From: Flavobacteriales bacterium
Lineage (GTDB): Bacteria > Bacteroidota > Bacteroidia > Flavobacteriales > Weeksellaceae
Assembly (NCBI GenBank): GCA_020635515.1
Contig: JACJZS010000002.1
Coordinates: 1,162,273 to 1,226,272 of the forward strand
DNA: 64,000 bases
Direction of reading: 5' to 3'
In this document: positions 25,177 to 41,344 of the stretch, piece after piece
How positions within the stretch are numbered: position 1 is the first letter of the stretch
Layout: each line of letters starts with the position of its first letter
Notes under the pieces: model-generated
What the model saw: the letters and a program-made list of their open reading frames with translations, nothing else
Database searches by the model: none
What the model was told of the DNA's origin: nothing
Translations under genes and position numbers: made by a program

Positions 25177-28131
25177 TCAAAATTTCTTCTTCACTTTATT
25201 AGCTTCTTCTATAATATCCGAATATTCGGTATAATTTTCCAATACTTGGTTTATAGTGTAGTTTGCTTGATACAAATCATTTAAATAGAAATAATTTTCA
25301 GACATTACAACCAAAGATTTTGCTCCCCAGTATTGTTGTTCAGAATAATTAGATACCAAATTGAATATTACTTCGTTGGATTCTTTATACTTTTTATCTT
25401 TATTTAGAAAGTATGCCTTGTAATACAAACTTTCTGCTTTTACGGCTTCATTACTCGAATTTTCTAATTCTTTGTATAATTCTTTTGCTTTATTTTCTTC
25501 TCCTAAACTTAATTCTGATTTTGCTATAATTACTTTTGCCGTTTCTTTGATTGTTTGTGAATTAGTATCATTTGAAATCACTTTATTTGCCATTTCTACA
25601 GCATTTTTATATTGTTTCTTTTCTGCATACAAATGCATCAATTCCAGTTCACAGAAACTTAAATAATTAGGATTATTAGAAACTTGATACAATGCTTCTA
25701 ATGATAAAAATGCTTCATCTTTTTTGTTTTGATTCAAATAAATTTGAGATAACCTAAGTAACGCTTCTTCTTGATTTTCATTTGGTTTTCCTGCTACTTT
25801 TGTAAAATAAGGAATTGCTTTTTCAAGTTGTTTTAACTGATAATAACTTTCTGCTAAATAGAAATTTACCAAGGTAGTTTTAGTGCTTTTAGGGAAATTA
25901 ATATCAAAACCAGTCAAATCATTGATAGTTTGTTGGTATTTTTGGGAACTGAAACTTTTCTGAGCAACAGCGAATACAAATTCTTCTTTTTCTTGGTTGG
26001 TAATGGAATAATTGATGCTTTTAATCCAGCTTTCAAAACCTTTAACATTTCCTGTTTTTACATAAAGTGATTGAGCTTCAGAAACTGCTCGCTTTACATA
26101 ATCGGTTTGTGCGTATTTTTTTGCGATTGATTTATACTCATTAATTGCTCTTTCATCTTGATTTAACTGTGCATAACTATCGGCACGAGCAAAATAAGAG
26201 TTTGTTAGGATTTCATTTTGCTTATCCATAGAAATTACTTTGTCGTAATAACTAATTGCATCATTGTATTTTTGTAGAGAATAGTATGCATTTGCAATTT
26301 CGTAATAAGCGGTTTGTTTTTTATCGCTATTAGGATAGTTTTGTATATAATCTTGAAGTGTTTTTATTTTTTCACTTTGTTTTCCTTGCAATCCATATAG
26401 ATTTGCTCGCTGAAATGTTGCATATTCAGAATTTTCCGTTTCTTCTGCTGTATCATAAATTGCAATAGCTTTATCGTAATTATTCAATCCTAAATACGCA
26501 TCTGCAAGGCGAAGTTTTGCATCTTCTTCTAACTCTTTTGTTGGATTATTTAAAAAACGCTCAAAGTATTCAACAGATTTTTCATAATTCTTTACTTTTA
26601 AATACGTAAATCCAAACAAATAAGGAAGTTGTATTTTTTCTGAATAATTAATGTTGATTTTCTCTAAGGTTTTTAAATTTAGGAGAGTTTCAGTATAATT
26701 ACCTAACTGAAAATTAGATTCTGCACTCCAGAAAAGAGATTTTGCTAACACTTCTTGATTAGACGTAATTTCTATTGCGTGTTTAAAGTTATCTATTGCT
26801 TGCTGGTACTTTCCTTCATTAAAAAGACGTACTCCATTTAGGTACGAAACTTCTTGGTATGCATTTTTTAATTCAGGAGATTTATTTGATTTTGTTTTTA
26901 GAATGTTTACAGCATCGTCTAACTGATTTGATTTCACATAGGATTTTACCAAAAGTTGGTTCATTTTTGCTTGATGTGGATTTTTAGGATAGTTGTCCAA
27001 AAAACGCTGAATTGCATTTGGTGTAGATTCAAATGGATTCCCAATATCAAAACTTAATTTCGCATAGTTGTAATGAGCATTTTCAGCAACTTTTGCATTA
27101 AAGTTCATTTCGCTTGCAGATTTATACGCAGTTAATGCTTCCTGCTTTTTGTTGGTTTTTAGATACGAATTACCTAATTGATAATATGCATTTTGTCCTA
27201 ATTCCGAATTTTCAGAAGTTATCTTATTAAAGTTATCTACCGCTTTTTGGTAGTTTCCGTTCACATAATACACATATCCTAATTGGTAAAAGTCTGATGC
27301 TTTTGGATTTTCTTGCGAATCAATATAATTTTCTAAGTATGGAATAGCTTGTTTGTATTCTTGAAGTTTAAAGTAACTTTCTCCTATAATTTTTGAGATT
27401 TCTGATTTCATCTCAGGAAATGCTCCCGAATTGAGAAGTTTTTTCCCTTCCTCTATTGCTTGATTGTATTTTTTGTCGTTAAAATAAATTTGAATCAAAT
27501 ATGGACGAACTTTTTGAGAATAATTTTCATGATTTAAAAGAGGTTCAAAATAGTTCATTACTTGAGCATATTTTCCTTCATGATAAAGAATATGTCCTAT
27601 CATGTAATCGGTTTCATTTTTATAATGATTTGCTTTATTGACTTTTTTTAGTGGAGATAATGCTTTTTGATATTCCTCACTCATAAAATAAGCATATCCT
27701 AGTTTGTAATAATGATTAATTTTTTCTTCTTCATTAAAATCGCTCGGTAAAACTTTAGATAAATAATATGCAGAATTTTCATATTGTCCATTTATCAAAT
27801 AGAAATTTCCAAGCGGTTCATATAGAGAATATTCTTGTTTTATTTCTGGATTTTCATTTGCATACTTTTCATATTCTTCTAGTGCATATTTCTCTTGAAG
27901 AACCAAATCAGCAACTACTTTTTTGAATGTTAAATCATTAGCAATAACAGCATTTGGTTTCTGAAAACTCAGTATATCTCTTGCTGAATTTTGTACAGCA
28001 GAATATGCTTTGTCATTAAACTGACTTTCTGCTTTTGTGATTTCGTATGTAATTTGTTTATAATAATCAGATTGTTGACCAAAAGAAAATGTAGTAAATA
28101 ATATATATATATAAAGACTTTTGAATTTCAT
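25177..28131 (-). CDS. Tetratricopeptide-repeat (TPR) protein with signal peptide, 984 aa
   Basis: An N-terminal signal peptide, then TPR-like 34-aa repeats along the whole length (recurrent Y..G..Y..A motifs). Confidence 0.8.
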   Translation of the reverse strand: MKFKSLYIYILFTTFSFGQQSDYYKQITYEITKAESQFNDKAYSAVQNSARDILSFQKPNAVIANDLTFKKVVADLVLQEKYALEEYEKYANENPEIKQEYSLYEPLGNFYLINGQYENSAYYLSKVLPSDFNEEEKINHYYKLGYAYFMSEEYQKALSPLKKVNKANHYKNETDYMIGHILYHEGKYAQVMNYFEPLLNHENYSQKVRPYLIQIYFNDKKYNQAIEEGKKLLNSGAFPEMKSEISKIIGESYFKLQEYKQAIPYLENYIDSQENPKASDFYQLGYVYYVNGNYQKAVDNFNKITSENSELGQNAYYQLGNSYLKTNKKQEALTAYKSASEMNFNAKVAENAHYNYAKLSFDIGNPFESTPNAIQRFLDNYPKNPHQAKMNQLLVKSYVKSNQLDDAVNILKTKSNKSPELKNAYQEVSYLNGVRLFNEGKYQQAIDNFKHAIEITSNQEVLAKSLFWSAESNFQLGNYTETLLNLKTLEKININYSEKIQLPYLFGFTYLKVKNYEKSVEYFERFLNNPTKELEEDAKLRLADAYLGLNNYDKAIAIYDTAEETENSEYATFQRANLYGLQGKQSEKIKTLQDYIQNYPNSDKKQTAYYEIANAYYSLQKYNDAISYYDKVISMDKQNEILTNSYFARADSYAQLNQDERAINEYKSIAKKYAQTDYVKRAVSEAQSLYVKTGNVKGFESWIKSINYSITNQEKEEFVFAVAQKSFSSQKYQQTINDLTGFDINFPKSTKTTLVNFYLAESYYQLKQLEKAIPYFTKVAGKPNENQEEALLRLSQIYLNQNKKDEAFLSLEALYQVSNNPNYLSFCELELMHLYAEKKQYKNAVEMANKVISNDTNSQTIKETAKVIIAKSELSLGEENKAKELYKELENSSNEAVKAESLYYKAYFLNKDKKYKESNEVIFNLVSNYSEQQYWGAKSLVVMSENYFYLNDLYQANYTINQVLENYTEYSDIIEEANKVKKKF

Positions 28132-28275
28132 TAGATGTGTTTTAAAATTGAACGTAATTCAGATAAGTATATTTTACTAATGTGCAAAATAAGAGCGAAT
28201 TTACTTAAAAATCCACTCTTACTAAAATTAATCCGAAAGTTTTAATATATCTTGACATTCGTCTGAAAAGAATGA

Positions 28276-28923
28276 TTATCTTTTCTCTAAATTTTCAATT
28301 CGTTTTTCCAGCTCAAATAATTTAGAATAGTACTTGTTATCTTTTGTAGTACTGAGATGTGTCACTACGGAATAAACATTACCTTCACTTATTTTAAAAG
28401 TTTTATTTGTTTTTATCAGTGTTAAGTTTTCTTCTTTTACGCTAATTTTATCTATAAATATAAATCCATTTAAATTAACTATATATTCCCTTGAATCAAG
28501 AGTATTTTCATTCAGATTTAATTTAATAAGTAATAATAAATCTCCTTTTTGATAGAAATCTTGCGGGTTATCTAAAATTATAAAATGATTAAAAAATGTT
28601 TTTAGTTTTTCAGCTTGAACTTCATAGATAATACCATCTTTTTTTTCTAATTCTAGATTTTGAAGTAATTTACTTTGAATTACTTTTTCTGCTTCAGTAT
28701 AGTTGGCGATTTGATTTACAGTTAGTTTCTTTTTCAATAAATCATCAGTAGATAGTTCAAAATGATCCGATATGCGTAATAACGTCTCTATTTTCGGTTC
28801 AGCTCTTCCTTCCTCATACGAACTCACTACTCCTCTATTTAAATTAACCAATTCTCCAAACTGAGTTTGACTTAATCCCTTTAACTGCCTGATTTTTTTA
28901 ATATTTGTGCCAAAATACGACAT
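28276..28923 (-). CDS. XRE-family helix-turn-helix transcriptional regulator with a LexA/S24-like (apparently non-catalytic) C-terminal beta domain
   Basis: The HTH is IKKIRQLKGLSQTQFGELVNLNRGVVSSYEEGRAEP. The C-terminal ~120 aa have an S24-like strand pattern (GDLLLLI, NGFIFIDKI, VYSVVTHL) but no obvious Ser-Lys dyad. The start is taken at the internal Met (28923); the track start at 28977 adds a hydrophobic extension. Confidence 0.6.
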   Translation of the reverse strand: MSYFGTNIKKIRQLKGLSQTQFGELVNLNRGVVSSYEEGRAEPKIETLLRISDHFELSTDDLLKKKLTVNQIANYTEAEKVIQSKLLQNLELEKKDGIIYEVQAEKLKTFFNHFIILDNPQDFYQKGDLLLLIKLNLNENTLDSREYIVNLNGFIFIDKISVKEENLTLIKTNKTFKISEGNVYSVVTHLSTTKDNKYYSKLFELEKRIENLEKR

Positions 28924-28935
28924 AATGCAAAATGT

Positions 28936-29002
28936 ATTTGCAAATATACAGAAATAAATTGTTAATTTTATTTGCATTTATGATTTTTAACTGTATATTT
29001 GC
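28936..29002. promoter_or_regulatory. Candidate operator/promoter elements in the divergent regulator / psp-like operon intergenic region
   Basis: A perfect 10-bp palindrome ATTTGCAAAT (28936-28945). A 12-bp inverted repeat gcaaatatacag (28940-28951) / ctgtatatttgc (28991-29002). Further TTTGCAT half-sites at about 28971 and 29112. Confidence 0.25.
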
Positions 29003-29147
29003 TAATATAATTATCAATAAACTCGATTATCGTTTAAAAACAACCGATTAAATGAAAATCATACCGAATATAAAAATCAGATTATTTATATAAAATAAAA
29101 AACATTAATTTGCATTAAATATTCAAGATAAATAAACACATAATAAT

Positions 29148-29540
29148 ATGAAAAAAAAGAACCTTATAAAAGAGCTATTATTAGAACTAGAATATACAAT
29201 TACGCATCAAACTGACGATTTATCTGTATTTGTGATTGATAAAGAAGTAGATGGAATCAAAAATTTGGTAATTGCTTATTCCGAACCAATTCTTATCATA
29301 GAGCAGTTCTTATTCGAGATAAAAAATGAATCTCTCTTTATGTATAAAAATTTACTTAAAAAGAACAGAGATATTGTGCATGGAGCTTTTGTATTAGATG
29401 ATTCGGGAACTAAAGTGATTTTTAGAGACACCTTACAAACCGAAAATTTAGATAAAAATGAACTAGAAGCAAGTTTGAATTCTCTAAGTCTTTTACTAAG
29501 CGAATACTCAAAAGAAATTGTAGAATTTTCAAAAAATTAA
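29148..29540 (+). CDS. YbjN-fold / YjfI-like (DUF2170-like) small cytoplasmic protein, first gene of the psp-like operon
   Basis: 130 aa. It has the size and motif pattern of YbjN-type domains (hydrophobic core PILIIEQFLFEI, then LLKKNRDIVHGAFVLDDSGTKVIFRDTL, then an acidic helical tail). Only 30 bp separate it from pspA. The assignment is by pattern recognition only. Confidence 0.35.
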   Translation: MKKKNLIKELLLELEYTITHQTDDLSVFVIDKEVDGIKNLVIAYSEPILIIEQFLFEIKNESLFMYKNLLKKNRDIVHGAFVLDDSGTKVIFRDTLQTENLDKNELEASLNSLSLLLSEYSKEIVEFSKN

Positions 29541-29570
29541 AAATAGATTAACTAAAAAATTAAAAATACC

Positions 29571-30272
29571 ATGAACATATTTAAACGATTATTCAGAATA
29601 GGTGAAGCACAAGTTCATTCCACTATAGATAAACTTGAAGATCCAATCGCTATGACCGAACAAGGAATACGCGAAATGAAAGAGCAATTAGATAAAGCGA
29701 TTCAAGCATTAGCCGAAATAAAAGCTCTTGCCATTAGAAAGAAAAATGAAGTAGAATCCTCAAAAAATCAAGCAGATGAATACCAAAACAAAGCTATGAT
29801 TATACTAAAGCGTTCTTCAGAAGGAGAAATACCTCAAGAAGACGCAGATAGATTAGCTTCGGAAGCGATTAAAAAGAAAAATCAAGCACTAAATAATAGT
29901 AAAATTGCCACTCAAGCACAAGAAAAATATGAAACTGATGTTGCAAAAATGCAAAAAAACATCAATGAATTAAAAGCTGATATCTCTAAGTGGGAAGGAG
30001 AATTAAAAACATTAAAAGCAAGAGTAAAAGTATCGGAAGCAACAAAAAACATAAACAAAAGCATGGCGGCGATTGATTCTAACTCTACAGTTTCATTACT
30101 TGAAAGAATGAAAGAAAAAGTGGAAGAACAAGAATCATTAGCCGAAGCATACGGAGAAATTGTGGATTCATCAAAGAGCATAGATGAGGAAATTGACAGT
30201 TATACCAATCAAGAAGATATGCAAGTAGCATCTGAACTAGAAAAATTAAAAAACCAATTAAATAGACAATAA
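29571..30272 (+). CDS. pspA: PspA/IM30 family protein (phage-shock protein A / Vipp1-like, bacterial ESCRT-III)
   Basis: 233 aa. It opens with MNIFKRLFRIGEAQVHSTIDKLEDPIAMTEQGIREMKEQL, the canonical PspA N-terminus, and continues as a long coiled coil. Confidence 0.9.
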   Translation: MNIFKRLFRIGEAQVHSTIDKLEDPIAMTEQGIREMKEQLDKAIQALAEIKALAIRKKNEVESSKNQADEYQNKAMIILKRSSEGEIPQEDADRLASEAIKKKNQALNNSKIATQAQEKYETDVAKMQKNINELKADISKWEGELKTLKARVKVSEATKNINKSMAAIDSNSTVSLLERMKEKVEEQESLAEAYGEIVDSSKSIDEEIDSYTNQEDMQVASELEKLKNQLNRQ

Positions 30273-30275
30273 AAA

Positions 30276-30935
30276 ATGAATATAGAAGAGTTGATTTCTA
30301 TTTCCTTTTCTCCTGTAAATACAGTACTTACGATTTTCCTTATTTTAAGCGTTATCTACTGGTTATTTACAATTATATCGGGAATGGATATAGATTTGGG
30401 TATTGATTTTGATGCAGATATAGATGTTGATACCGATTTTGAGCATCCAGACTCTACTGTTGAAGTACCTCAAGACCCTTCTATGTTTATTCAATTTTTA
30501 AAATTTCTTAACCTAGATGTTATTCCTATCACATTTTTCATAACACTTACAATTCTATTTTCTTGGTTAATTTCGGTCAATTTAAATTACTATTTTCCAA
30601 TTCCAAATTGGTTAGGATTCCTTTTACTAATTCCCATATTTTTTGCAAGTATTACCGTAACTAAATTTGTCACTTTTCCTTTAAAAGGTATTTTTAAAAA
30701 CTTAAATCATCAAGGAGAAAAGACATATGATTTTTTAGGAAGAACAGGAAAACTAAAAGCAACTATACAAGAAAATAAGCTAGGAACAATGGAACTTTAT
30801 ATTCAAGGTGATCCTATAAAAATTTTAGTAAAAAGCAAAGACGGAATTAAACTAGAAGAAAATAGTTCTGTGGTTGTGGTGAACGAAAATCCAGACAAGA
30901 AATTTTACATCGTAGAACAAGATTATCAATTATAA
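30276..30935 (+). CDS. YqiJ-like inner-membrane protein with a C-terminal NfeD-type OB-fold (DUF1449-like)
   Basis: Acidic DxD-rich periplasmic loop, then TM helices, then a C-terminal beta-barrel GRTGKLKATIQENKLGTMELYIQGDPIKILVKS...VVVVNEN typical of NfeD partners of SPFH proteins. It starts 3 bp after the pspA stop. Confidence 0.75.
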   Translation: MNIEELISISFSPVNTVLTIFLILSVIYWLFTIISGMDIDLGIDFDADIDVDTDFEHPDSTVEVPQDPSMFIQFLKFLNLDVIPITFFITLTILFSWLISVNLNYYFPIPNWLGFLLLIPIFFASITVTKFVTFPLKGIFKNLNHQGEKTYDFLGRTGKLKATIQENKLGTMELYIQGDPIKILVKSKDGIKLEENSSVVVVNENPDKKFYIVEQDYQL

Positions 30936-30953
30936 AATTATTTATTTAACATT

Positions 30954-33047
30954 ATGAACATATCATTTATTATTACAGTTGCGGTAATTGCGATTGTAGC
31001 TTTAGGTCTTATTTTTTGGATTCTTTCCATGTATAAAAAGACAACTCAAGGTATCGTAATTGTGCGTACTGGATACGGAGGGACAAAAGTATTCTTTAAC
31101 GCAGGAATTGTAATTCCAATTATTCACAGAATGGAACTGATGGATATTTCCGTGAAAAAGTTAGAAATTGAAAGAGAAGCAAAAGACGGATTAATCTGCA
31201 AAGATAATATGCGTGCAGACATACAAGTTGCTTTTTTTATCCGAGTTAACAAATCTGCAGGAGACATTATTAATGTTGCTCAAACCATTGGTTGCAGTCG
31301 TGCTTCGGATATTGAAACATTACGTCAGCTTTTTGAAGCTAAATTTTCAGAAGCATTAAAAACCGTAGGTAAAAAGTTTGAATTTATAGAACTTTACGAA
31401 GCAAGAAGTGAATTTAGAAACGAAATTCTAAACATTATAGGTACAGATTTAAATGGTTACGTACTAGATGATTGTGCTATTGATTACCTAGAGCAAACTT
31501 CATTGCAATACCTAAATAAAGACAATATTCTCGATTCCGAAGGTATCAAAAAAATAACAGAACTAACTGCTGAACAGAATGTTAAAGCAAACTTTGTTCG
31601 TAGAGAAGAAGAAAAAACCATAAAAAAACAAAACGTAGAAGCTCGTGAAGCAATTCTTGAATTAGAAAAACAATTGGTAGAGAAAGAAGAATCCCAAAGA
31701 AGAGAAGTAGAAAACATTAAATCCAAGGAAAATGCTACTATTTTAAAGGTTCAAGAAGAAGAACGTTTAAAATATGAAACGGTACGAATTGCTACCGAAG
31801 AGCAACTTGCTATTGCAGAAGAAAATAAGTTACGCCAAGTTGTTATTGCTTCTAAAAATAAAGAACGTGCAGAGCTAGTAGAAACCGAAAGAGTAGAAAA
31901 AGACAGAGCATTAGAACAAACCGAAAGAGAAAGAATTGTTGCTCTTGCAGATATAGAAAAAGAAAAAGCGGTAGAGGTAGAAAAGAAAAACATTCAAGAT
32001 GTAATTCGAGATAGAGTTGCAATGGAAAAAACTGTAGTACAAGAAGAACAAAACAAACTCGACATAGAAGCATTTAAAACTGCAGATAGAAAGAAACAAG
32101 TAGAAATCACTCTTGCTCAACAAGAAGCAGAAAAAAGATTAATTCAAGAAATTAAAGCTGCCGAAGCGAGAAAACTTGCCGCAGAAAAAGATGCAGAAAA
32201 ATACGTTATCGAAGCACAAGCCAAAAGAGATGCTGCAGAAAAAGAAGCAAATGCAAGAATCATAATTGCCGAAGCTCAATCAAAAGAAGAAGCAGTTGTT
32301 GGCCTTTCAGAAGCTCAAGTAATGCATGCAAAAGCCGATGCATCAGAAAGACAAGGTATTGTAGAAGCTAGTATAATTGAGAAAAAAGCAAAAGCGGAAG
32401 CTGTAGGAATCAAAGAAAAAGCATCTGCAAAAAAAGACGATGGTCTTGCAGAAGCACTTGTGATTCAAGAAAAACTAACAGCACAAGCGACAGGAGAAAA
32501 AGAAAAAGCTCTTGCCGAAGCTGCTGGAATTACAGAAAAAGCGGAAGCAATGAAAAAACTAAACGAAGCAGGAAGAGAACACGAAGAGTTTAGACTGAAA
32601 CTTGCCAAAGAAAAAGAAGTAGAGCTTGCTCATATAAATATTCAAAAAGATATTGCACAAGCACAAGCTAGCGTTCTTGCCGAAGCATTTAAAACTGCTG
32701 ATATAGACATTGTTGGTGGAGATAATACATTCTTCGAAAATGTAATCAAACAAATTTCTGCAGGACAAGGAATAGACAAATTCATTAAACATTCCGAAAA
32801 TGCACAAATTATTAAAGAATCTTTATTAAGCGATGATTCTAGTGACAATATAATTGGTAAAGTTTTAAACCTTGTAGATAAATATAATGTTTCCTCAGAA
32901 GACATCAAGAACCTAACCATTTCCAGTTTGATTTTTAAACTCAATGGAATGGTAGAAACTTCTTCCGAAAAAGGAATCCTAAACCAAGCACTTGATTTTG
33001 CTAAACAATTAGGCGTTGAAAACAAACCAATTAGCAAAGTAAAATAA
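30954..33047 (+). CDS. Flotillin family (SPFH/band-7) protein, YqiK/FloT-like, with an expanded Ala/Glu/Lys-rich coiled coil
   Basis: N-terminal TM helix, then an SPFH domain (IVRTGYGGTKVFFNAGIVIPIIHRMELMDISVKKLEIEREAKDGLICKDNMRADIQVAFFIRV), then a ~350-aa low-complexity EA-repeat coiled coil and a flotillin C-terminal domain. Confidence 0.9.
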   Translation: MNISFIITVAVIAIVALGLIFWILSMYKKTTQGIVIVRTGYGGTKVFFNAGIVIPIIHRMELMDISVKKLEIEREAKDGLICKDNMRADIQVAFFIRVNKSAGDIINVAQTIGCSRASDIETLRQLFEAKFSEALKTVGKKFEFIELYEARSEFRNEILNIIGTDLNGYVLDDCAIDYLEQTSLQYLNKDNILDSEGIKKITELTAEQNVKANFVRREEEKTIKKQNVEAREAILELEKQLVEKEESQRREVENIKSKENATILKVQEEERLKYETVRIATEEQLAIAEENKLRQVVIASKNKERAELVETERVEKDRALEQTERERIVALADIEKEKAVEVEKKNIQDVIRDRVAMEKTVVQEEQNKLDIEAFKTADRKKQVEITLAQQEAEKRLIQEIKAAEARKLAAEKDAEKYVIEAQAKRDAAEKEANARIIIAEAQSKEEAVVGLSEAQVMHAKADASERQGIVEASIIEKKAKAEAVGIKEKASAKKDDGLAEALVIQEKLTAQATGEKEKALAEAAGITEKAEAMKKLNEAGREHEEFRLKLAKEKEVELAHINIQKDIAQAQASVLAEAFKTADIDIVGGDNTFFENVIKQISAGQGIDKFIKHSENAQIIKESLLSDDSSDNIIGKVLNLVDKYNVSSEDIKNLTISSLIFKLNGMVETSSEKGILNQALDFAKQLGVENKPISKVK

Positions 33048-33063
33048 GATTTGATGTATAAGT

Positions 33064-33103
33064 TTAAGAAGTTAAGTTTTAGATAAATAACTTAACTTCT
33101 TAA
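33064..33103 (+). terminator. Perfect 15-bp-stem hairpin 17 bp after the flotillin stop; candidate terminator or attenuator without a strong U-tract
   Basis: ttaagaagttaagtt - ttagataaat - aacttaacttcttaa. Confidence 0.4.
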
Positions 33104-33116
33104 TTATGAGTAAGTA

Positions 33117-33326
33117 ATGTTTTCAATAATTATAAATATATTTTCTATTTCTATTGTGTTTTTTTGTATTCTAAAATGCATTAAATATGATAAAATTATC
33201 AAAAAAAAAATAAACAATATTTTACTAACCTATGAAGAAAGTAAAGTATATCAAAAGCTTAAAAGCTATTTTCTATATGCATTTATTACATTACTAATTT
33301 TACAATTTTTAGGCTTAATTCTGTGA
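33117..33326 (+). CDS. Small two-TM ORF in the 378-bp AT-rich spacer between the flotillin and giant ATPase genes; may be spurious
   Basis: 69 aa with two hydrophobic helices, in a very AT-rich region that favours chance ORFs. Confidence 0.2.
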   Translation: MFSIIINIFSISIVFFCILKCIKYDKIIKKKINNILLTYEESKVYQKLKSYFLYAFITLLILQFLGLIL

Positions 33327-33425
33327 TTATTTATCTCATTAGAAAAATAAAATTTGTAAAAATGCATTCATTTAAAGACAAGAATTAAATATAATTCATC
33401 ATTAATAATTTATAATTAACAATTA

Positions 33426-36400
33426 ATGTCCGAAGAGTCACAAAACAATCAAGTTTCCAAGGAAACGTACGAAATCATAAAAACTCGTCTTAATAAGCAA
33501 AAAGACGATCTAATTCTGCGTTTAAAAAAGTTAAACGAAAATAGAAATGAAGTTTTTGGAAACAAAGAGTTTAGTTTAATTGCAAACGAAAGAATCTCCA
33601 CAGAACAAGCATGCAAACCAAAGGATATTTTTTCCATTGAAAATCATGTAATCCTCGGATACAACGTGCATCTAGGTTTAAAAAATGAAATTGATATTTC
33701 CGATATTTTTTCTGTTTATTCTTTTGAGAACAATACGTTTGAACCATCTCATCTTAACTTCTTGTCTGATGCAAATTTTATAGACGAAATAAAAAACCTG
33801 TATAAATACTACCGAAATACCAATTTTAAACGTTTTTACTCTACCGAAAATTATCTTTATTTCGTATTTCAACTTTCGGAATCTGTATCGGATATCAAAG
33901 CATTTAAATTTCTAATTGAAAAAGAACAAATTACTTATATTGACTCTCGTTCGGCATCAGAAGTTACTTTCCCTCAACAACACAGTTTTAAATGGGAAAA
34001 AGCCACACGCGACATGCAAAAAACGGGAAAATTTCCTCACGTTTCTCTTGCAAATAAAGTTTTTGTAGAGGCAATTGACGGAGATATTACCATAAAAGTG
34101 GAAGATAACACCGACTCTGGTCTTGGAATCTATTCGGAAGAAGTACAGCACAAAGATCAATCGTTAGACGATGCCGAAATTCATTTTTGTGATTTAGGTA
34201 ATTTAGTTATTTTCAAGATAAAACCGTATCGAGAAGAAGAGCGATATTTTATTTATAATCACAAAGAAAAAAAGGTTTTTAAAGTTGATTCTTTGGAAAA
34301 TTCTGGTATTCTTTTGCCAGAAAATCAAGGAATCATATTTCCAAACGGATACATTCTGCAAAATGGAGAATCGAAAGTAATACATCAAGAAAACCAAGAT
34401 ATTCGTTTTTTGAAACGTATTGCTAGTTCAAATGGAGAAAACTTTCTCTTCGTATACTACAACATTACCTCATCAGATTATTTAATTCTTCCTTACAGCA
34501 TCATTTCTCAAACCATAGATACTCCTATTAGCTGTACGGGTTTTTCTATATTTGATGATGGAACTTTAATTTATTTAAAAGCTAATGAAGAAACAACTAA
34601 AAACCATTTGGTACAACTTTGGGAAACACCTTTTTCCAAGGAAATTAAAATTAACAAGGAACTTGAAAATAATCTTTTGTTTAAAATTGGCAATAAAGAT
34701 TTGGTTCGTCTTCTCGCTGATTGCAACGAATTAATTACATTATTAGAAAAAGAAGATTCTTACTCAGGATTATACAACGATATTGTAACAGAATCTACCG
34801 ACATTTTAGATGCGTATTATTTTTTAAATGAAGAAAAAGTAGGAGAAATTCAAATTCCGTTACTTGAAATTCGAAAAATTGCTCATTCTGCAATAAATGA
34901 ATACGAGAAAGTAGTTGAAATTCGAAAAAATACAAAACAAAAAGTATCCGAAGTTCAAGAAAAATGTGAGAATATTCTTCAAACTACCAAACATTTAGAA
35001 TACAATACTCTTACAGAATACATAGATAATCTTTCTGAACTAAGGAAAATCGTTGGAGAAATTATTTCTGCTCGAAACCTTTCTTATGTAGATATTTCAC
35101 TATTAGACGAACTAGAAAATAAAATTAAAGAACGTTCCGAAGAGCTTTCAGGTGCATGTGTTAAATTTTTACTTCAAGATAACGCTTTAACTCCTTACGA
35201 AGAAAAAGCAAATAATCTATCCCAAAAGATTGAGAATTTAACAAAAGCTATACAGAAAAAAGAAATTGAATCCGAACTCGATGAACTCGCTTTCCAATTG
35301 GAGCTTTTAGTTGATGTTGTAAATAATTTAAAAATAGAAGATACTTCTCAATCAACTGAAATTATTCAAAATATTTCTGTAATCTTTTCACGAATCAATA
35401 CAGAGAGAATAGAACTCAACAAAAAGGTAAAAGAAGTTTCTTCTAAAGAATTATCTGCTGACTTTCAAGCTCAAATTACACTTTTCGACCAATCTGTAGT
35501 CAACTTTATGGAGCTTGCAAATACTCCAGAAAAATGCGATGAATACCTTACCAAATTATCTTTAAGTTTAGAAGAACTAGAAACCAAATTTGTAGATTTT
35601 GAGGAATTTATTGAGGAAATAGCAGAAAAACGAGAAAATGTATACAATCATTTTCAAGCAAAAAAAGTTCAACTCAACGAACAAAGAAATAAAAGAACCA
35701 ACACTTTGTTTTCTTCTGCCAAAAGAATTCTAAATGGAATAAAAAACAAAGCAGAAAACTTTAAATCAGAAACTGAAATCAATGGTTTTTTTGCTTCGGA
35801 TTTAATGGTAAATAAAGTAATTGACTTTTCTAATCAACTGTTAGAATTAGAAGATTCTGCAAAATCGGAAGAAATTCTCACGTTGCTCAAAACAACGCAA
35901 CAAGAAGTAATAAGGAAACTAAAAGATAAAAACGAACTTTTTAAAGACGGAGATAATATTATTTCTTTTGGCGAATACAAATTTGCAATCAATACTCAAA
36001 AGTTAGATTTATCTCTTGTTTTAAGAGAAAATCAATACTATTTTCATCTAACAGGAACTAGCTTTTACGAAAAAATTAAAGATGAATCCATTTATCATTT
36101 AAAAGAAGTTTGGAATCAAGAATATAAATCCGAAAACAAATCAGTTAAGCATTTCGAATACTTAGCTTTTCAAATCTTCTCTAAGAACAAAGAGCTAAAT
36201 AATGTCGATAAAAACACTTCTCTCATACAAGAGTATATGTCCTCTAACTATTCCGAAGGATATGTAAAAGGAATACACGATTCAGATGCTTTGCAATTAA
36301 CAAATGTTTTACAGCATCTTCATAATGAACTGGGAATTCTAAAGTTTAATCCAAAAGAACGAGCATTAGCTCAGCTTTTTTGGAATCAACAATCCAGCGA

Positions 36401-38249
36401 ATATAAAGAGCTTTTAGAAAAGCAATTCAGTGCAATTCAGTTGGTAAATGAAACCTTGAATAGCAATGCAACATTTGATTATATTGTTGATGAGGTAGCT
36501 GAAAAAATTGCGGAATTTTCTATCGAATTTCAAGAATTTAAAAATACAAATCTAAATAACTCTGTAAGTTACTTAATCAAAGAAAATAGAAATGAATTTA
36601 CAATTTCTAAAACTGCATCGGATTTTTACCTCTCATTTCTAAAATACTTAAAAAATAAAACAAAAGATATTGACTTCTTAAATAAAATTGAAAACTTAAA
36701 AAATCATGTAGAAGAATGTTTTTCGATTATTTATAGTTCGTTGAAAAGTTATGCTGAAATCGAAAATTATTCCATAGAAGAATCGTATTTAGTAGAAGTT
36801 GCGGTACTTTACTTATTGAATAATTATCATGAAAATCAAGTGCTAAATGTTCCAACTCAAATCGAACTGAAAGAACTAAAGTCTCTTGAAAGCAATCAAA
36901 TATACAAGCTAGATTATCATCAATTTACTCGAAAACTCGATTTATACACACATGAAATTGTTCCGAAGTTCGATGAGTTAAAAAAGCTAAAACATCAATT
37001 GGTAGTTGAGAAAAAAAATCAATTAAAAATTGATAGCTTCCAGTCAAATGTATTGAGCTCATTTGTAAGAAACAAACTTATCAACCAGGTATATTTTCCT
37101 CTTATTGGAGCAAATCTATCCAAACAATTAGGAACAGTAGGCGAAAATAAACGCACAGATAAAATGGGAATGTTGCTTTTAGTTTCTCCTCCAGGATACG
37201 GAAAAACTACACTTATGGAATACCTCGCCAATCGACTTGGGTTAATTTTTATGAAAATAAATGCTCCATCAATAGGACATTCCATTACTTCTGTAGATCC
37301 TTCTCAGGCAGATAATTCTGCTGCTAAACAGGAGTTAGAAAAATTAAATCTTGCTTTTGAGATGGGAGATAATGTAATGTTGTATTTAGATGACATTCAG
37401 CATTGTAATCCTGAGTTTTTACAAAAATTCATTTCTCTTGCAGACGGACAAAGAAAGATAGAAGGTATTTACAACGGAGAGTCAAAAACCTATGATTTAC
37501 GTTCCAAAAGATTTTGTTTGGTAATGGCAGGAAATCCATATACAGAAAGTGGAGAAAAATTCAAAATACCAGATATGCTTTCCAATCGTGCAGATATCTA
37601 CAATTTAGGAGATATTGCAGGTAATAAACGAGATTTATTCGATTTAAGTCTTATAGAGAATGCGTTAATGTCTAATGTGTACCTTAGAAAACTAACGGAA
37701 TTATCATTAGAAAATCTGTATAGTTTACTCAGTTTAATTCAAAACCCAAATAGTTCTAGTAAAATTAAAGGTAACTTTTCTAATCAAGAAATAGAAGATT
37801 TTAAATCTGTGTTGTTAAAGTCAATTCAAATTAGAAATACGGTAATAAAAGTAAATGAATTGTACATAAAATCTTCTGCGATGAGCGACGACTATCGTAA
37901 AGAACCAGTATTTAAACTGCAAGGTTCATACAGAGATATGAATAAACTGTTAAGTAAAGTGCAACCGATACAAAATGAAAGTGAAATTACAGATATTGTA
38001 TTAGAGCATTATCAGAATGAAAGTCAAACACTTACTATCGATGCAGAAGCAAATCTACTTAAACTTCGTGAATTGATGAATCTTCTATCTAATGAAGAAA
38101 AAAGCAGATGGGAGGAAATAAAAACTACTTTCCAAAAAAATCAAAAGTTTAAATCACTAGGAGATAATGATAGAATGAGTCAGATAGTTGCCTTGCTTTC
38201 TGAGTTTTCTGACGGTTTAAATGGAATCAAAGATGTTTTAAAAAAGTAG
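33426..38249 (+). CDS. Giant (1607 aa) protein: N-terminal ~400-aa beta-rich domain, a long helical/coiled-coil middle, and a C-terminal AAA_5-type (MoxR/McrB/dynein-like) ATPase module
   Basis: Walker A LLLVSPPGYGKTT (about nt 37186-37212). Walker B plus sensor region MLYLDDIQHCNPEFLQKFISLAD. Sensor-1/Arg region LVMAGNPYTESGEKFKIPDMLSNRADIYNL. This collinear pattern matches AAA_5 ATPases (LLDEINRA-NPEV...; ..TMNP.....L..AL.NRF). The ORF is uninterrupted, with no frameshifts. Confidence 0.85.
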   Translation: MSEESQNNQVSKETYEIIKTRLNKQKDDLILRLKKLNENRNEVFGNKEFSLIANERISTEQACKPKDIFSIENHVILGYNVHLGLKNEIDISDIFSVYSFENNTFEPSHLNFLSDANFIDEIKNLYKYYRNTNFKRFYSTENYLYFVFQLSESVSDIKAFKFLIEKEQITYIDSRSASEVTFPQQHSFKWEKATRDMQKTGKFPHVSLANKVFVEAIDGDITIKVEDNTDSGLGIYSEEVQHKDQSLDDAEIHFCDLGNLVIFKIKPYREEERYFIYNHKEKKVFKVDSLENSGILLPENQGIIFPNGYILQNGESKVIHQENQDIRFLKRIASSNGENFLFVYYNITSSDYLILPYSIISQTIDTPISCTGFSIFDDGTLIYLKANEETTKNHLVQLWETPFSKEIKINKELENNLLFKIGNKDLVRLLADCNELITLLEKEDSYSGLYNDIVTESTDILDAYYFLNEEKVGEIQIPLLEIRKIAHSAINEYEKVVEIRKNTKQKVSEVQEKCENILQTTKHLEYNTLTEYIDNLSELRKIVGEIISARNLSYVDISLLDELENKIKERSEELSGACVKFLLQDNALTPYEEKANNLSQKIENLTKAIQKKEIESELDELAFQLELLVDVVNNLKIEDTSQSTEIIQNISVIFSRINTERIELNKKVKEVSSKELSADFQAQITLFDQSVVNFMELANTPEKCDEYLTKLSLSLEELETKFVDFEEFIEEIAEKRENVYNHFQAKKVQLNEQRNKRTNTLFSSAKRILNGIKNKAENFKSETEINGFFASDLMVNKVIDFSNQLLELEDSAKSEEILTLLKTTQQEVIRKLKDKNELFKDGDNIISFGEYKFAINTQKLDLSLVLRENQYYFHLTGTSFYEKIKDESIYHLKEVWNQEYKSENKSVKHFEYLAFQIFSKNKELNNVDKNTSLIQEYMSSNYSEGYVKGIHDSDALQLTNVLQHLHNELGILKFNPKERALAQLFWNQQSSEYKELLEKQFSAIQLVNETLNSNATFDYIVDEVAEKIAEFSIEFQEFKNTNLNNSVSYLIKENRNEFTISKTASDFYLSFLKYLKNKTKDIDFLNKIENLKNHVEECFSIIYSSLKSYAEIENYSIEESYLVEVAVLYLLNNYHENQVLNVPTQIELKELKSLESNQIYKLDYHQFTRKLDLYTHEIVPKFDELKKLKHQLVVEKKNQLKIDSFQSNVLSSFVRNKLINQVYFPLIGANLSKQLGTVGENKRTDKMGMLLLVSPPGYGKTTLMEYLANRLGLIFMKINAPSIGHSITSVDPSQADNSAAKQELEKLNLAFEMGDNVMLYLDDIQHCNPEFLQKFISLADGQRKIEGIYNGESKTYDLRSKRFCLVMAGNPYTESGEKFKIPDMLSNRADIYNLGDIAGNKRDLFDLSLIENALMSNVYLRKLTELSLENLYSLLSLIQNPNSSSKIKGNFSNQEIEDFKSVLLKSIQIRNTVIKVNELYIKSSAMSDDYRKEPVFKLQGSYRDMNKLLSKVQPIQNESEITDIVLEHYQNESQTLTIDAEANLLKLRELMNLLSNEEKSRWEEIKTTFQKNQKFKSLGDNDRMSQIVALLSEFSDGLNGIKDVLKK

Positions 38250-38293
38250 ATAAAATGTCTATATATACTATATGTCATATTGTCATATTTTTG

Positions 38294-38301
38294 TAAATTT
38301 G
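38294..38301 (+). promoter_or_regulatory. Bacteroidetes-type -7 promoter element (TAnnTTTG) upstream of miaB
   Basis: taaatttg lies 16 bp upstream of the miaB ATG, with TTG-containing sequence about 20 bp further upstream. Motif match only. Confidence 0.25.
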
Positions 38302-38316
38302 CACAAATCATAATTA

Positions 38317-39765
38317 ATGCAAGAAGGCGAAAAAATAATTGTGGAGTCTATACAAGGTACGACTACTCAAATTGTAGAAGATAAAAAGAATACAAAAAAA
38401 GTATTTTTAGAAAGTTACGGATGCCAAATGAACTTTTCTGATAGCGAAATTGTAGCTTCTATTTTGCAAAAACAAGGATACAATACAACATCTGATTTAA
38501 AAGATGCAGACTTAATTTTACTTAATACGTGTTCCATTAGAGATAAAGCAGAACAAACCGTTAGAAAAAGGCTATCTGAATTTAATTCGCTTAAAAAAAA
38601 CGAAAAAAAACCTACCATTGGAGTTTTAGGTTGTATGGCAGAGCGACTAAAAGCTAAATTTTTAGAAGAAGAAAAATTAGTTGACTTAGTTGTTGGTCCT
38701 GATGCGTATAAAGATTTGCCAAACCTTTTACAGGAAACAGATGACGGTAGAAATGCAATTAACGTTATTCTTTCTAAAGATGAAACCTACGGAGATATTC
38801 AACCTGTTCGTCTAGGAGGAAATGGTGTAACGGCATTTGTTACCATTACGCGTGGTTGCGATAATATGTGTACATTTTGTGTAGTTCCGTTTACTCGTGG
38901 TAGAGAACGTTCTCGTGACCCGCATTCTATACTAAATGAATGTGTAGATTTATATGAAAAAGGATACAAAGAAATAACACTTCTCGGACAAAATGTTGAC
39001 TCTTATCTTTGGTTTGGAGGTGGACCCAAAAAAGATTTTGAGAAAGCATCTGATATTCAAAAGGAAACTGCAATAAACTTTGCTCAACTGCTAGAAATGA
39101 TTGCTAAAAAACTTCCTGAAACGCGTATTCGTTTTTCTACTTCCAACCCTCAAGATATGAGTTTAGAGGTGTTTGAAGCAATCAAAAAATACAATAATAT
39201 TTGTAAATATGTTCATTTACCTGTACAAAGTGGAAGTACATCTGTTTTAAAAAGAATGAATAGACAACATACACGAGAAGAATATATAGATTTAATCAAA
39301 AAAGCTAAAGAAATCGTTCCTGATATTGCCTTCTCTCACGATATGATTGCAGGTTTTTGTGGAGAAACAGAAGAAGAACACAAAGATACATTGTCTTTAA
39401 TGGAAGAAATTAAATACGACTTTGGTTATATGTTTGCGTACTCTGATCGTCCAGGCACTCCTGCTCACAAAAAAATGGAAGATGATGTTCCTCATGAAAT
39501 CAAAAAGCGACGGTTAAGTGAAATCATTGAATTGCAAAGTCAACATTCTTTGTTTAGAATGAAATCTTATGTTGGGAAAACATACGAAGTACTGATTGAA
39601 GGAGATTCCAAAAAGGATAAAAACCAATGGAAAGGAAGAATTTCTCAGAATGCTATGGTAGTATTCAACAAAACAGAAAACGAAAACATAGGAGATTTTG
39701 TTCAAGTGAAAATCAATGATTGTACTTCTGCAACTTTGATAGGAGAAGTGATTAATACTATTTGA
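38317..39765 (+). CDS. miaB: tRNA-2-methylthio-N6-dimethylallyladenosine synthase
   Basis: MTTase N-terminal (YGCQMNFSDSE), a radical-SAM CxxxCxxC (CDNMCTFCVVP) and a C-terminal TRAM domain. 482 aa. Confidence 0.9.
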   Translation: MQEGEKIIVESIQGTTTQIVEDKKNTKKVFLESYGCQMNFSDSEIVASILQKQGYNTTSDLKDADLILLNTCSIRDKAEQTVRKRLSEFNSLKKNEKKPTIGVLGCMAERLKAKFLEEEKLVDLVVGPDAYKDLPNLLQETDDGRNAINVILSKDETYGDIQPVRLGGNGVTAFVTITRGCDNMCTFCVVPFTRGRERSRDPHSILNECVDLYEKGYKEITLLGQNVDSYLWFGGGPKKDFEKASDIQKETAINFAQLLEMIAKKLPETRIRFSTSNPQDMSLEVFEAIKKYNNICKYVHLPVQSGSTSVLKRMNRQHTREEYIDLIKKAKEIVPDIAFSHDMIAGFCGETEEEHKDTLSLMEEIKYDFGYMFAYSDRPGTPAHKKMEDDVPHEIKKRRLSEIIELQSQHSLFRMKSYVGKTYEVLIEGDSKKDKNQWKGRISQNAMVVFNKTENENIGDFVQVKINDCTSATLIGEVINTI

Positions 39766-40774: not shown

Positions 40775-40783
40775 ATTCAACTG

Positions 40784-41344
40784 ATGAAGAAAATGGATTT
40801 CAAAACATTAAACTTACAATATCCAATAGGAACTTTTGAAGAATCAGATTATTATGGCAATCAGAAAATTTTTGAAATGATATCCGAAATAGAAAAATTC
40901 CCATTAAAGCTAAAAGAAATAGTATCTTCTTTAAGTGAAGAAGAGTTAAATATTCCTTATAGAGAAAAAGGTTGGAATTCTAAACAAGTGGTTCATCATT
41001 TAGCTGATAGTCATTTAAATGCTTATTTAAGATTTAAACTAGCGTTAACAGAAAATAATCCTACTATAAGACCTTATTTAGAAGATAAATTTGGAGAATT
41101 AGAAGAATACAATACAACTCCAATTAAGTTATCATTAGAATTCATTGATGTATTACATCAAAAGTGGATTATTTTACTCAATACATTGTCGGAAAATGAT
41201 TTAGAAAAGACGTATTTTCATCCAGAGTTAAATGAAAATGTATCATTAAAAACTGCTGTTAAAATGTATGCTTGGCATTCGGAACATCATTTTCAGCATA
41301 TAGTTTTAGTTAAAAATGAAAAACAATCCTTTTCTAAATTCTAA
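40784..41344 (+). CDS. DinB/YfiT-family putative metal-dependent hydrolase
   Basis: 186 aa. Carries a His triad typical of the DinB_2/YfiT four-helix bundle (HHLADSH..., WHSEHHFQH). Confidence 0.75.
   Translation: MKKMDFKTLNLQYPIGTFEESDYYGNQKIFEMISEIEKFPLKLKEIVSSLSEEELNIPYREKGWNSKQVVHHLADSHLNAYLRFKLALTENNPTIRPYLEDKFGELEEYNTTPIKLSLEFIDVLHQKWIILLNTLSENDLEKTYFHPELNENVSLKTAVKMYAWHSEHHFQHIVLVKNEKQSFSKF

Follow-up and report, generated by a model that had tools for sequence, protein, structure and literature searches.

A CesT-PspA-NfeD-flotillin-AAA+ gene cluster with a divergent XRE-type regulator as a candidate membrane-maintenance operon in a Flavobacteriales bacterium

The window analysed here is a contiguous stretch of 64,000 nucleotides from a Flavobacteriales bacterium. 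Five genes were found in one same-strand array, preceded by a divergently oriented gene for an XRE-family regulator (Table 1). Genes 1 to 4 span positions 29148 to 33047 and are separated, according to the ORF coordinates, by gaps of 30, 3 and 18 bp; 378 bp lie between the flotillin gene and the AAA+ gene. By their homologues and domain matches, these four are genuine genes rather than chance ORFs. The original prediction had described a four-gene cluster in which a yjfI-yjfJ-like pair is fused upstream of a yqiJ-yqiK-like pair, and the four plus-strand ORFs were indeed present with the tight spacing that it had given. The extent of the cluster was drawn too narrowly, however: the prediction ended at position 30935 and left the flotillin gene of its own title outside, and the 1607-aa DUF3686/AAA+ gene as well as the divergent HTH regulator gene were missed. 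A 69-aa ORF at 33117-33326 was considered as a sixth gene and dropped because no tblastn match to it was obtained in 84 loci. An Rfam search of positions 28000 to 39000 returned nothing meaningful. Comparisons of gene order were based on 80 related Flavobacteriia loci (Flavobacterium, Chryseobacterium, Riemerella), and those of sequence motifs on 84 related loci and the window.

Table 1. Genes and sequence elements of the cluster, with positions counted from the first letter of the window
Feature	Position	Strand	Length	Description
XRE-family HTH regulator gene	28276..28923	-		divergent from gene 1
Operator-like imperfect palindrome TGTTAATTTTATTTGCA	28960..28976	+		family consensus TTGCTAAnAATATTTGCAA
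Putative Bacteroidota-type -7 box TATATTTG (TAnnTTTG)	28994..29001	+		19 nt downstream of the -33 TTTG
Gene 1	29148..29540	+	130 aa	CesT/Tir/YbjN-fold chaperone-like protein (Pfam PF22550 CesT_Tir_1)
Gene 2	29571..30272	+	233 aa	PspA/IM30/Vipp1 (bacterial ESCRT-III) family
Gene 3	30276..30935	+	219 aa	three TM helices and C-terminal NfeD-type OB-fold domain
Gene 4	30954..33047	+	697 aa	YqiK-like flotillin: TM, SPFH/Band-7, coiled coil
Long A+T-rich stem-loop	33057..33108	+		directly 3′ of the flotillin stop codon
Gene 5	33426..38249	+	1607 aa	DUF3686, DUF7902, coiled coil, C-terminal AAA+ ATPase domain

The product of gene 1, for which more than 3100 homologues were found, matched the Pfam family PF22550 CesT_Tir_1 with an E-value of 5e-50 (169 bits, cut-off 27). 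The match to YbjN (PF10722; E 1.7e-4, 22.2 bits) barely reached the gathering score of 22, and the match to CesT (PF05932) stayed with 16.5 bits under the cut-off of that model. The fold is alpha-beta(3-4)-alpha-beta(2)-alpha, as in class I chaperones of type III secretion systems (T3SS). It had been proposed that this protein is of the YbjN-fold/DUF2170 type. The YbjN/CesT fold was borne out by the PF22550 and YbjN matches, but the DUF2170 sequence family was not: no match to PF09938 (DUF2170) was obtained in Pfam at E<=1, BLASTP against E. coli YjfI (DUF2170) gave a non-significant E-value of 5.2, and hhalign of the gene 1 and YjfI alignments gave a probability of 1% (E 0.053) with shallow alignments (Neff ~2) that limit the power of the comparison. 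The protein resembles a solved DUF2170 protein in structure, and its gene likewise opens the cluster, just ahead of pspA. In structure it is an analogue of YjfI and BacA (both DUF2170), but its sequence family is PF22550.

Gene 2 was assigned to the PspA/IM30 family, as predicted, by a match to PspA_IM30 (PF04012; E 5.4e-40, 137.8 bits) that extends over residues 2-229 of 233. The alignment to Vipp1/PspA structures (E 4e-17) starts at residue 1, and the N-terminal amphipathic helix is included, since it aligns from this residue to both the E. coli PspA and the Vipp1 structures. No closer relationship to YjfJ than to canonical PspA was seen: the identity was 22% to YjfJ (33.5 bits) and 23% to E. 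coli PspA (43.1 bits). The PspA orthologue of Dokdonia was placed in the yjfJ family by Ravi et al. 2024 (PMC11237479).

Gene 3, with 183 homologues, encodes an N-terminal multi-TM region followed by the C-terminal NfeD-type OB-fold domain. Its description as YqiJ/NfeD-like agreed with this architecture and with the position before flotillin, but not with the profile searches, in which neither YqiJ_N (PF21001) nor YqiJ_OB (PF07290) was matched at E<=10 and hhalign against YqiJ gave a non-significant probability of 1.9% from shallow alignments (Neff ~2). E. coli YqiJ itself matches both models, and YqiJ_N was matched only weakly (E 0.037) by 2 of 28 gene 3 homologues. By its sequence, gene 3 is best regarded as a distinct subfamily with the architecture of YqiJ/YuaF. 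The NfeD-like gene, which lies 18 bp upstream of flotillin in the window, is kept directly upstream of it in 79 of the 80 related loci and likewise in Pseudomonas and Proteus records. On its other side, the gap between the PspA and NfeD-like genes measures -4 to +6 nt (median 3) in all 63 loci with both genes, whereas in relatives the remaining gaps range between 12 and 445 nt. The tight spacing that had been taken as evidence of translational coupling is thus robust for the PspA-to-NfeD junction and not for the others.

The YqiK-like flotillin was recognized as such: gene 4 shares 31% identity with E. coli YqiK over 465 aa (residues 5-463, E 3e-48), and residues 1-241 matched Band_7 with an E-value of 6.6e-13. 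The sequence starts with a hydrophobic N-terminus and contains a long coiled coil rich in Ala, Glu and Lys. The match to the C-terminal Flot domain (PF15975) was partial and weak (E 0.074, 13.6 bits, cut-off 27), as compared with an E-value of 6e-41 for E. coli YqiK. Full-length gene 4 gave no match in hmmscan, where the repetitive coiled coil may trip the composition filter of HMMER.

The stem-loop behind the flotillin gene has an RNAfold dG of -16.3 and a z-score of -4.1 against shuffled sequences. Comparable hairpins follow the flotillin stop codon in 73% of the related loci but the stops of the CesT, PspA or NfeD genes in at most 3%; hairpins are conserved after the flotillin and AAA+ stops. 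No stable hairpins were found after the stops of genes 1 to 3. A scan of positions 28000-39000 for terminator-like sites on the plus strand found none; it depends on stems rich in G+C, and the A+T-rich stem-loop behind flotillin escaped it. This element is possibly an attenuator, a partial terminator or an RNA-stabilising element between flotillin and the AAA+ gene.

Gene 5 matched the Pfam families DUF3686 (E 6e-170) in its N-terminal part, DUF7902 (E 6e-22) and AAA (E 8e-7), with the Walker A motif PPGYGKT and the Walker B motif LYLDD. Ravi et al. 2024 (PMC11237479) describe the DUF3686 region as a beta-propeller. The AAA domain was weakly closest to AAA proteins of the classical clade (Rix7, p97; E ~1e-6, Walker A region), and no match to an MIT domain was obtained for the protein.

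The divergently encoded regulator (HTH_3, E 3e-13) has, besides a C-terminal helix, an S24-like C-terminal domain that is reduced and non-catalytic; in the alignment, the S24 segment GDSM is missing or lacks the Ser. Mechanically, the ORF extends to position 28977, and the homologues begin at the Met at 28923. Of the 80 related loci, 78 have a homologue that is placed in the same divergent way, and homologues also stand beside CesT-PspA dyads with other downstream genes. The palindrome between regulator and gene 1 is represented by the motif T[GT][CT]TAA-N5-TTTGCA, which 81 of 85 sequences (the window and 84 related loci) carry at the corresponding place. In 1.65 Mb the motif had 155 matches, nearly all of them at this site or at one site within the HTH gene, and it is kept across different downstream cargo genes. 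Its putative function is that of an operator bound by the XRE-type regulator. The palindrome includes a putative -33 TTTG at 28971-28974, so that part of the motif is simply a -33 promoter element. The consensus of Bacteroidota promoters, -33 TTTG and -7 TAnnTTTG, is well established, and TAnnTTTG is conserved 18-19 nt past the palindrome across loci. A sigma-70 promoter scan was uninformative in this sequence of 30% G+C (58 sites as against 51 expected). The second copy of the motif, which many Chryseobacterium loci have within the HTH gene and the window lacks, was not accepted as separate operator evidence, since it encodes the conserved peptide LQKILA and is inseparable from this coding constraint.

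The order HTH(-)||CesT-PspA-NfeD-Flot-AAA(+) was fully collinear in 62 of the 80 related loci, and three more were cut by contig ends; the genes flanking the cluster are not conserved. Genes 1 to 5 probably form a single operon. The AAA+ gene, preceded by the conserved hairpin and a gap of 378 bp, could also be transcribed separately or with attenuation.

Operons of exactly this type were described by Ravi et al. 2024 (PMC11237479, section 19, Table S3), which the original prediction had overlooked. In their example, ANH61663.1 of Dokdonia donghaensis DSW-1, the gene order, the domain architectures and the class Flavobacteriia are shared with the window, as is the divergent regulator, given in Table S3 as '<-cHTH+Protease'. 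Nothing substantive differs, and the window contributes a further orthologue of this operon, on a 1.55-Mb contig of a Flavobacteriales MAG. The locus is an ordinary member of a known, little-tested system with an arrangement previously described in related bacteria, and it adds no new kind of system. Some details go beyond that description: a PspA-to-NfeD junction that hardly varies, the operator/promoter motif, the flotillin hairpin and the loss of the CesT-PspA dyad in some Chryseobacterium.

The bacABCDEF operon of P. aeruginosa (PA3732–PA3727, 'biofilm-associated cluster'; PMC2587700, PMC10948618; BacA structure PDB 8Q8O) is probably a counterpart, on the basis of its DUF2170–PspA start, the reported protein sizes and the proteobacterial variant described by Ravi et al. 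For BacC to BacF and genes 3 to 5, sizes alone match (a 23 kDa TM protein and a 76 kDa protein). The six genes are one transcript by RT-PCR, BacB-F accumulate 6- to 13-fold in a bacA mutant and a BacA–BacB interaction was reported (PMC10948618); PA3731 is induced by osmotic shock (PMC2587700). The two operons differ in that BacA is a DUF2170 protein with no detectable sequence similarity to gene 1, in the sixth gene bacF, and in the sigma-54 promoter proposed for bac as opposed to the XRE-type regulator and putative Bacteroidota-type promoter of the window.

For E. coli the gene orders given in the original prediction were correct. A CesT-superfamily protein precedes the PspA paralogue in yjfI–yjfJ (18 bp apart), like genes 1 and 2, and an NfeD-like 3-TM/OB protein precedes flotillin in yqiJ–yqiK (26 bp apart), like genes 3 and 4. 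The two pairs are unlinked there, however; yjfIJ(KLMC) runs on with polyamine-related genes and yqiJK is without an AAA+ partner. In B. subtilis, PspA and flotillin/NfeD are encoded in different operons, namely pspA-ydjGHI (PspA and SPFH protein YdjI) and yuaFGI (NfeD protein YuaF and flotillin FloT), without a CesT-like chaperone and without a DUF3686 AAA+ ATPase. A B. subtilis SPFH protein is reported to be needed for the attachment of PspA to the membrane (PMC8581546). ESCRT-III/Vps4 of archaea and eukaryotes is a more distant parallel: PspA/Vipp1 proteins are ESCRT-III-fold polymers, the structures matching gene 2 being those named above, and the co-encoded AAA+ ATPase suggests an ATP-driven polymer turnover, as Ravi et al. 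2024 propose. Gene 5 is not a Vps4 orthologue, in view of the missing MIT match, the huge N-terminal DUF3686/coiled-coil region and the weak similarity to classical AAA proteins.

Taken together, the five genes and the regulator are best interpreted, with a probability of about 0.6, as a Bacteroidota PSP-type membrane-maintenance (envelope-stress) operon, and a PspA-based membrane maintenance on a flotillin platform is its likely role. For the operon type, chaperone-assisted, ATP-dependent membrane dynamics were proposed by Ravi et al. 2024 (PMC11237479). In such a mechanism, the XRE-type regulator would control the operon by binding the palindrome that overlaps the -33 box. A dimer of the CesT/YbjN-fold protein would bind PspA and keep it soluble or inactive, and may, like BacA of P. 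aeruginosa, also exert a negative feedback on expression. The NfeD-like protein and flotillin would build an inner-membrane SPFH scaffold, as in the solved QmcA–YbbJ complex, and where the membrane is damaged or specialised this scaffold would draw in the ESCRT-III-like PspA polymer, in the way that YdjI recruits PspA in B. subtilis. The large AAA+ ATPase would then remodel or recycle PspA and/or flotillin assemblies, in the manner of Vps4 on ESCRT-III. Were PspA and the NfeD-like protein translationally coupled, their stoichiometry would be fixed, which would point to the NfeD-like protein as the direct membrane partner of PspA.

A further-reaching version is more tentative and, on balance, rather doubtful: the DUF3686/AAA+ protein would be a Vps4 analogue that disassembles PspA polymers nucleated on an NfeD/flotillin cage, the PF22550 protein would be a PspA 'cap', and the XRE-type regulator, with its degenerate S24-like domain, and the conserved TTGCTAAnAATATTTGCAA operator would constitute a Bacteroidota-wide envelope-stress switch driving interchangeable PspA cargo operons (flotillin/AAA+, polyamine, or the dyad alone). 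The operon would package PspA with a candidate holder (CesT-fold), a platform (NfeD and flotillin) and a recycler (AAA+ ATPase), and it may therefore serve as a compact test system for PspA/ESCRT-III targeting and recycling without PspF or Vps4. The practical value of the window lies in the correct annotation of genes 1, 3 and 5. Gene 1 should be annotated as a PspA-associated chaperone-like protein and not as a type III secretion factor, gene 3 as an NfeD/YqiJ-like protein, and the conserved place beside flotillin points gene 5 to a flotillin- or PspA-linked role.

The cluster could also consist of two independent neighbours, a CesT-PspA stress dyad beside an NfeD-flotillin-AAA+ microdomain operon with no functional interaction. 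Both modules do occur separately, so 'fused' was a fair wording for the pairs. The CesT-PspA dyad stands alone in loci L003 and L004 or is combined with a polyamine module. Fifteen Chryseobacterium loci and Proteus have NfeD-Flot-AAA but no dyad, and the flotillin-AAA pair of Streptomyces is also dyad-less, its upstream 144-aa protein having no detectable match to the NfeD-like protein of the window. Moreover, yjfIJ and yqiJK lie ~1.2 Mb apart in E. coli. From the 15 dyad-less Chryseobacterium loci it follows that NfeD-flotillin-AAA+ can work without cis-encoded PspA. Nevertheless, independence of the two units appears unlikely, because the junction between them is the tightest and most conserved of the cluster, no hairpin or terminator was found there, and full and dyad-less forms alike have the same regulator and operator-like motif in front of them. 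The linkage also recurs in Proteobacteria with DUF2170, a chaperone family that is non-homologous in sequence, as in the array YjfI-PspA-YjfKLMC-NfeD-SPFH-AAA of plasmid pQBR103.

Less probable still, the 1607-aa protein might be a DNA-repair ATPase that is merely co-located with the membrane genes and unrelated to them. This is how databases name it: DUF3686 stands in Pfam as 'ATPase involved in DNA repair', and homologues in RefSeq are called 'DNA repair ATPase'. A weak RuvB_N match (E 2.5e-4) and the conserved hairpin with a gap of 84-445 nt, which set the AAA+ gene apart from flotillin, would agree with the name. The RuvB_N match covers the P-loop alone, however, and no published evidence for the name was found, DUF3686 being unmentioned in the literature searched. 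In 78 of 80 Flavobacteriia loci, and in Pseudomonas, Proteus and Streptomyces records too, the AAA+ gene is the next one downstream of flotillin, and flotillin-adjacent homologues of gene 5 in Bacteroidota, Pseudomonadota and Actinomycetota share 30-42% identity over the full length. The adjacency across phyla indicates a functional linkage of gene 5 to flotillin.

An abortive-infection type of anti-phage or conflict system, with XRE-type control of a membrane effector and the AAA+ beta-propeller protein as sensor or effector, is very improbable: the divergent XRE-type regulator and the very large NTPase resemble many defence loci, the cluster is carried by large plasmids (pQBR103, Streptomyces and probably Deinococcus plasmids) and its non-conserved flanks mean that it behaves as a portable module, but PADLOC gave no specific match for any of the five proteins and thus left this reading unsupported, the cluster occupies a single conserved, non-patchy chromosomal locus throughout Chryseobacterium and Flavobacterium, and every component has housekeeping relatives in membrane biology. 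The PADLOC output was limited to noise from coiled coils, generic matches to HTH domains and two AAA matches below the threshold, with E-values of ~2e-3 to 6e-3.

The cluster in the window (G+C content of about 30%) comprises four ORFs arranged head-to-tail on the + strand (29148-33047), followed by a fifth gene and preceded by a divergently oriented regulator gene. The gaps between genes 1/2, 2/3 and 3/4 were measured as 30, 3 and 18 bp, in agreement with the tight spacing reported in the original prediction; its end coordinate of 30935 leaves out the flotillin gene that its own title had named, and the AAA+ ATPase and the regulator were overlooked.

Coordinates of the genes and sequence elements of the cluster in the window
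Feature	Coordinates	Strand	Size or sequence	Remark
HTH gene (XRE-type regulator)	28276-28977	-		mechanical ORF; divergent, upstream of gene 1
Operator-like palindrome	28960-28976		TGTTAATTTTATTTGCA	
TAnnTTTG box	28994-29001		TATATTTG	
Gene 1 (CesT-fold chaperone-like)	29148-29540	+	130 aa	
Gene 2 (PspA/IM30)	29571-30272	+	233 aa	
Gene 3 (NfeD-like)	30276-30935	+	219 aa	
Gene 4 (flotillin, Flot)	30954-33047	+	697 aa	
Stem-loop	33057-33108			long, A+T-rich, right after the flotillin stop; dG -16.3, z -4.1
Hydrophobic ORF	33117-33326		69 aa	in the flotillin-AAA+ gap; probably not a gene
Gene 5 (DUF3686/AAA+ ATPase)	33426-38249	+	1607 aa	378-bp gap after gene 4

The product of gene 1 matched the Pfam family PF22550 (CesT_Tir_1) with an E-value of 5e-50 and also attained the YbjN gathering score (E 1.7e-4), and its AlphaFold2 model (pLDDT 87.5) has the topology of T3SS chaperones and YbjN, so that the predicted YbjN fold was confirmed. 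The assignment to DUF2170 was not supported: the Pfam search gave no DUF2170 match, BLASTP found no similarity to E. coli YjfI (E 5.2), and hhalign comparison of the gene 1 family (alignment A2, 28 sequences) with YjfI (alignment A3, 18 sequences), both alignments being shallow, returned a probability of 1%. The solved BacA structure of P. aeruginosa (8q8o) is a true member of the YjfI family (E 1.2e-20 against the YjfI profile). Because it belongs to PF22550 and not to DUF2170 and its model shows this topology, gene 1 is YjfI-like by fold and operon position, yet of another sequence family; the original prediction is largely right for fold and architecture and imprecise at the family level.

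Gene 2 encodes a full-length PspA/IM30 protein (E 5e-40), as had been predicted, including the N-terminal helix, since with E. coli PspA as well as with solved Vipp1/PspA structures the alignment starts at residue 1. The scores did not favour the narrower label yjfJ-like, the one for YjfJ (33.5 bits) being no better than that for PspA (43.1 bits). Gene 3 is NfeD-like but belongs to a divergent subfamily without significant match to YqiJ, to which it had been likened. The expected YqiK-like flotillin after the NfeD-like gene was found in gene 4 (31% identity to YqiK over 465 residues, E 3e-48), which carries an N-terminal transmembrane segment and a Band_7/SPFH domain (E 6.6e-13, residues 1-241) together with a weakly detectable C-terminal 'Flot' domain. 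Gene 5 consists of DUF3686 (E 6e-170), DUF7902 and a C-terminal AAA+ domain weakly resembling classical-clade AAA ATPases. The regulator carries an HTH_3 domain and a reduced S24-like C-terminal domain without the Ser nucleophile. Compared with its homologues, which all begin at Met 28923, the mechanical ORF is 18 codons longer at the 5′ end (28924-28977), an extension that would reach into the operator-like motif; Met 28923 is probably the true start.

For the analysis of conservation, GTDB species genomes were scanned with a pattern derived from the gene 3 alignment. The scan yielded 80 loci (Flavobacterium, Chryseobacterium and Riemerella), whose gene content was read by tblastn with the window proteins. 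The order HTH(-)||CesT-PspA-NfeD-Flot-AAA(+) was retained in 62 loci, three were truncated by contig ends, and the remaining 15, all from Chryseobacterium, kept HTH(-)||NfeD-Flot-AAA(+) and were devoid of the CesT-PspA dyad (L046, L049, L053, L055, L060, L064, L071, L073, L075, L078-L082 and L084). In these 15 species, the lost dyad is replaced by a 5′ leader roughly 130 nt long. Conversely, the dyad stands alone with the same divergent HTH gene in locus L004 and without it in Rapidithrix (L003), and in Tenacibaculum (L001) dyad and divergent HTH gene precede a DUF4178–DUF350–spermine-synthase–AdoMetDC module. As each part occurs without the other, the proposed joining of two modules, a yjfI-yjfJ-like and a yqiJ-yqiK-like pair, was right; NfeD–flotillin–AAA+ is the more constant unit and the chaperone–PspA dyad a 5′ add-on. 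Homologues of the AAA+ protein from outside Bacteroidota are 30-42% identical to it over the full length, and their genes follow a flotillin gene in three records, namely Pseudomonas fluorescens pQBR103 (YjfI–PspA–rhomboid–YjfK–YjfL–YjfM–YjfC–NfeD-like–SPFH–AAA+), Proteus mirabilis (NfeD-like–Flot–AAA+) and Streptomyces (hypothetical–flotillin–AAA+). On the pQBR103 megaplasmid (L088, NC_009444.1 84437-97641), ten genes on one strand join a whole yjfIJKLMC-type polyamine/PspA operon and a rhomboid protease to NfeD-like–SPFH–DUF3686 AAA+, so that all three module types meet in one array. RefSeq gives homologues of this DUF3686 AAA+ protein the name 'DNA repair ATPase'; no published evidence for this name was found, DUF3686 being unmentioned in the literature searched, and the consistent linkage to flotillin genes makes a true DNA-repair ATPase less likely.

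The intergenic distances varied between 12 and 142 nt for CesT to PspA (63 loci), 30 and 362 nt for NfeD to Flot (79 loci, one gap of 1340 nt) and 84 and 445 nt for Flot to AAA+ (78 loci), whereas PspA and NfeD were separated by -4 to +6 nt (median 3, 63 loci). Constraint is thus confined to the junction between the two 'modules', where it would fit a translational coupling between PspA and the NfeD-like protein; the coupling deduced earlier from tight spacing is robustly backed at this junction only, the other gaps being variable. That the neighbouring units are unrelated is considered less likely. Among the related loci, stable hairpins (z < -2 against shuffles) were present after 73% of the flotillin stops and 90% of the AAA+ stops, and after at most 3% of the CesT, PspA and NfeD stops. 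Judged from sequence, genes 1-4 would be transcribed as a single unit, and the conserved stem-loop ahead of the AAA+ gene would attenuate or stabilise; in the window it may act as an attenuator or RNA-stability element setting the flotillin to AAA+ ratio. Rfam gave no relevant match. The 69-aa hydrophobic ORF in this gap had no tblastn match in 84 related loci.

Of 85 sequences compared (the window and 84 related loci), 81 share a palindrome-like motif between HTH gene and operon (consensus TTGCTAAnAATATTTGCAA), with TAnnTTTG 18-19 nt downstream. Promoters of Bacteroidota are characterized by -33/-7 boxes, and the TTTG within the palindrome and the TAnnTTTG box match this consensus. Conservation extends beyond these boxes into a roughly palindromic flank, a plausible candidate operator for the divergent XRE-type regulator. 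The motif was seen in intergenic regions of L001 and L005-L084, and is common to flotillin-type, polyamine-type (Tenacibaculum) and dyad-less Chryseobacterium operons, so that regulator and putative operator are the constant element. A second copy, TGCTAATATTTTTTGCA, absent from the window, was located in most Chryseobacterium loci and in some of the Flavobacterium loci (L013-L083). It lies within the HTH gene, with the promoter motif about 385 bp downstream of it (e.g., L015, 8417-8433). On the coding strand it corresponds to the conserved peptide LQKILA, and a regulatory role is therefore inseparable from coding constraint.

The system type is already present in the literature, and the window is one more instance. 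Ravi et al. (2024, PMC11237479) described this type of operon, noted the CesT/Tir superfamily domain in YjfI (DUF2170) and abbreviated operon forms without PspA, and their Table S3 includes an example from Dokdonia donghaensis with a divergent 'cHTH+Protease' gene. The bac cluster of P. aeruginosa, a six-gene operon by RT-PCR, starts with BacA (DUF2170) and BacB (PspA homologue), followed by 23-kDa transmembrane and 76-kDa proteins (PMC10948618, PMC2587700); judged by sizes and the description of Ravi et al., BacC-F are probably equivalent to genes 3-5. BacB-F over-accumulate 6- to 13-fold in a bacA mutant, mutants show defects in biofilm formation, rhamnolipid production, swarming and virulence, and osmotic shock raises PA3731 (PMC10948618, PMC2587700). 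According to the title of PMC8581546, a B. subtilis SPFH protein is needed to link PspA to the membrane.

Beyond the observed part identities, gene order, modularity, constrained junction and conserved promoter/operator, we propose a stress-responsive operon under an XRE-type repressor, in which PspA would be held by a CesT-fold dimer that may feed back on expression. The NfeD-like protein and flotillin would build an SPFH platform with PspA polymers recruited to the inner membrane, and the AAA+ ATPase would recycle PspA and/or flotillin assemblies. A defence system, for which PADLOC gave no support, is less likely than this stress-responsive operon.

The flanks of the cluster are not conserved among relatives on either side, and the next gene downstream is miaB-like. 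Judged by eye from their translations, the genes at 39770-48024 look unrelated to the cluster (miaB-like, YhcG/PDDEXK-like, DinB-like, sigma-54-dependent regulator, LptE-like lipoprotein, secG, OsmC-like, Cys/Met-metabolism PLP enzyme and cytochrome bd subunit I).
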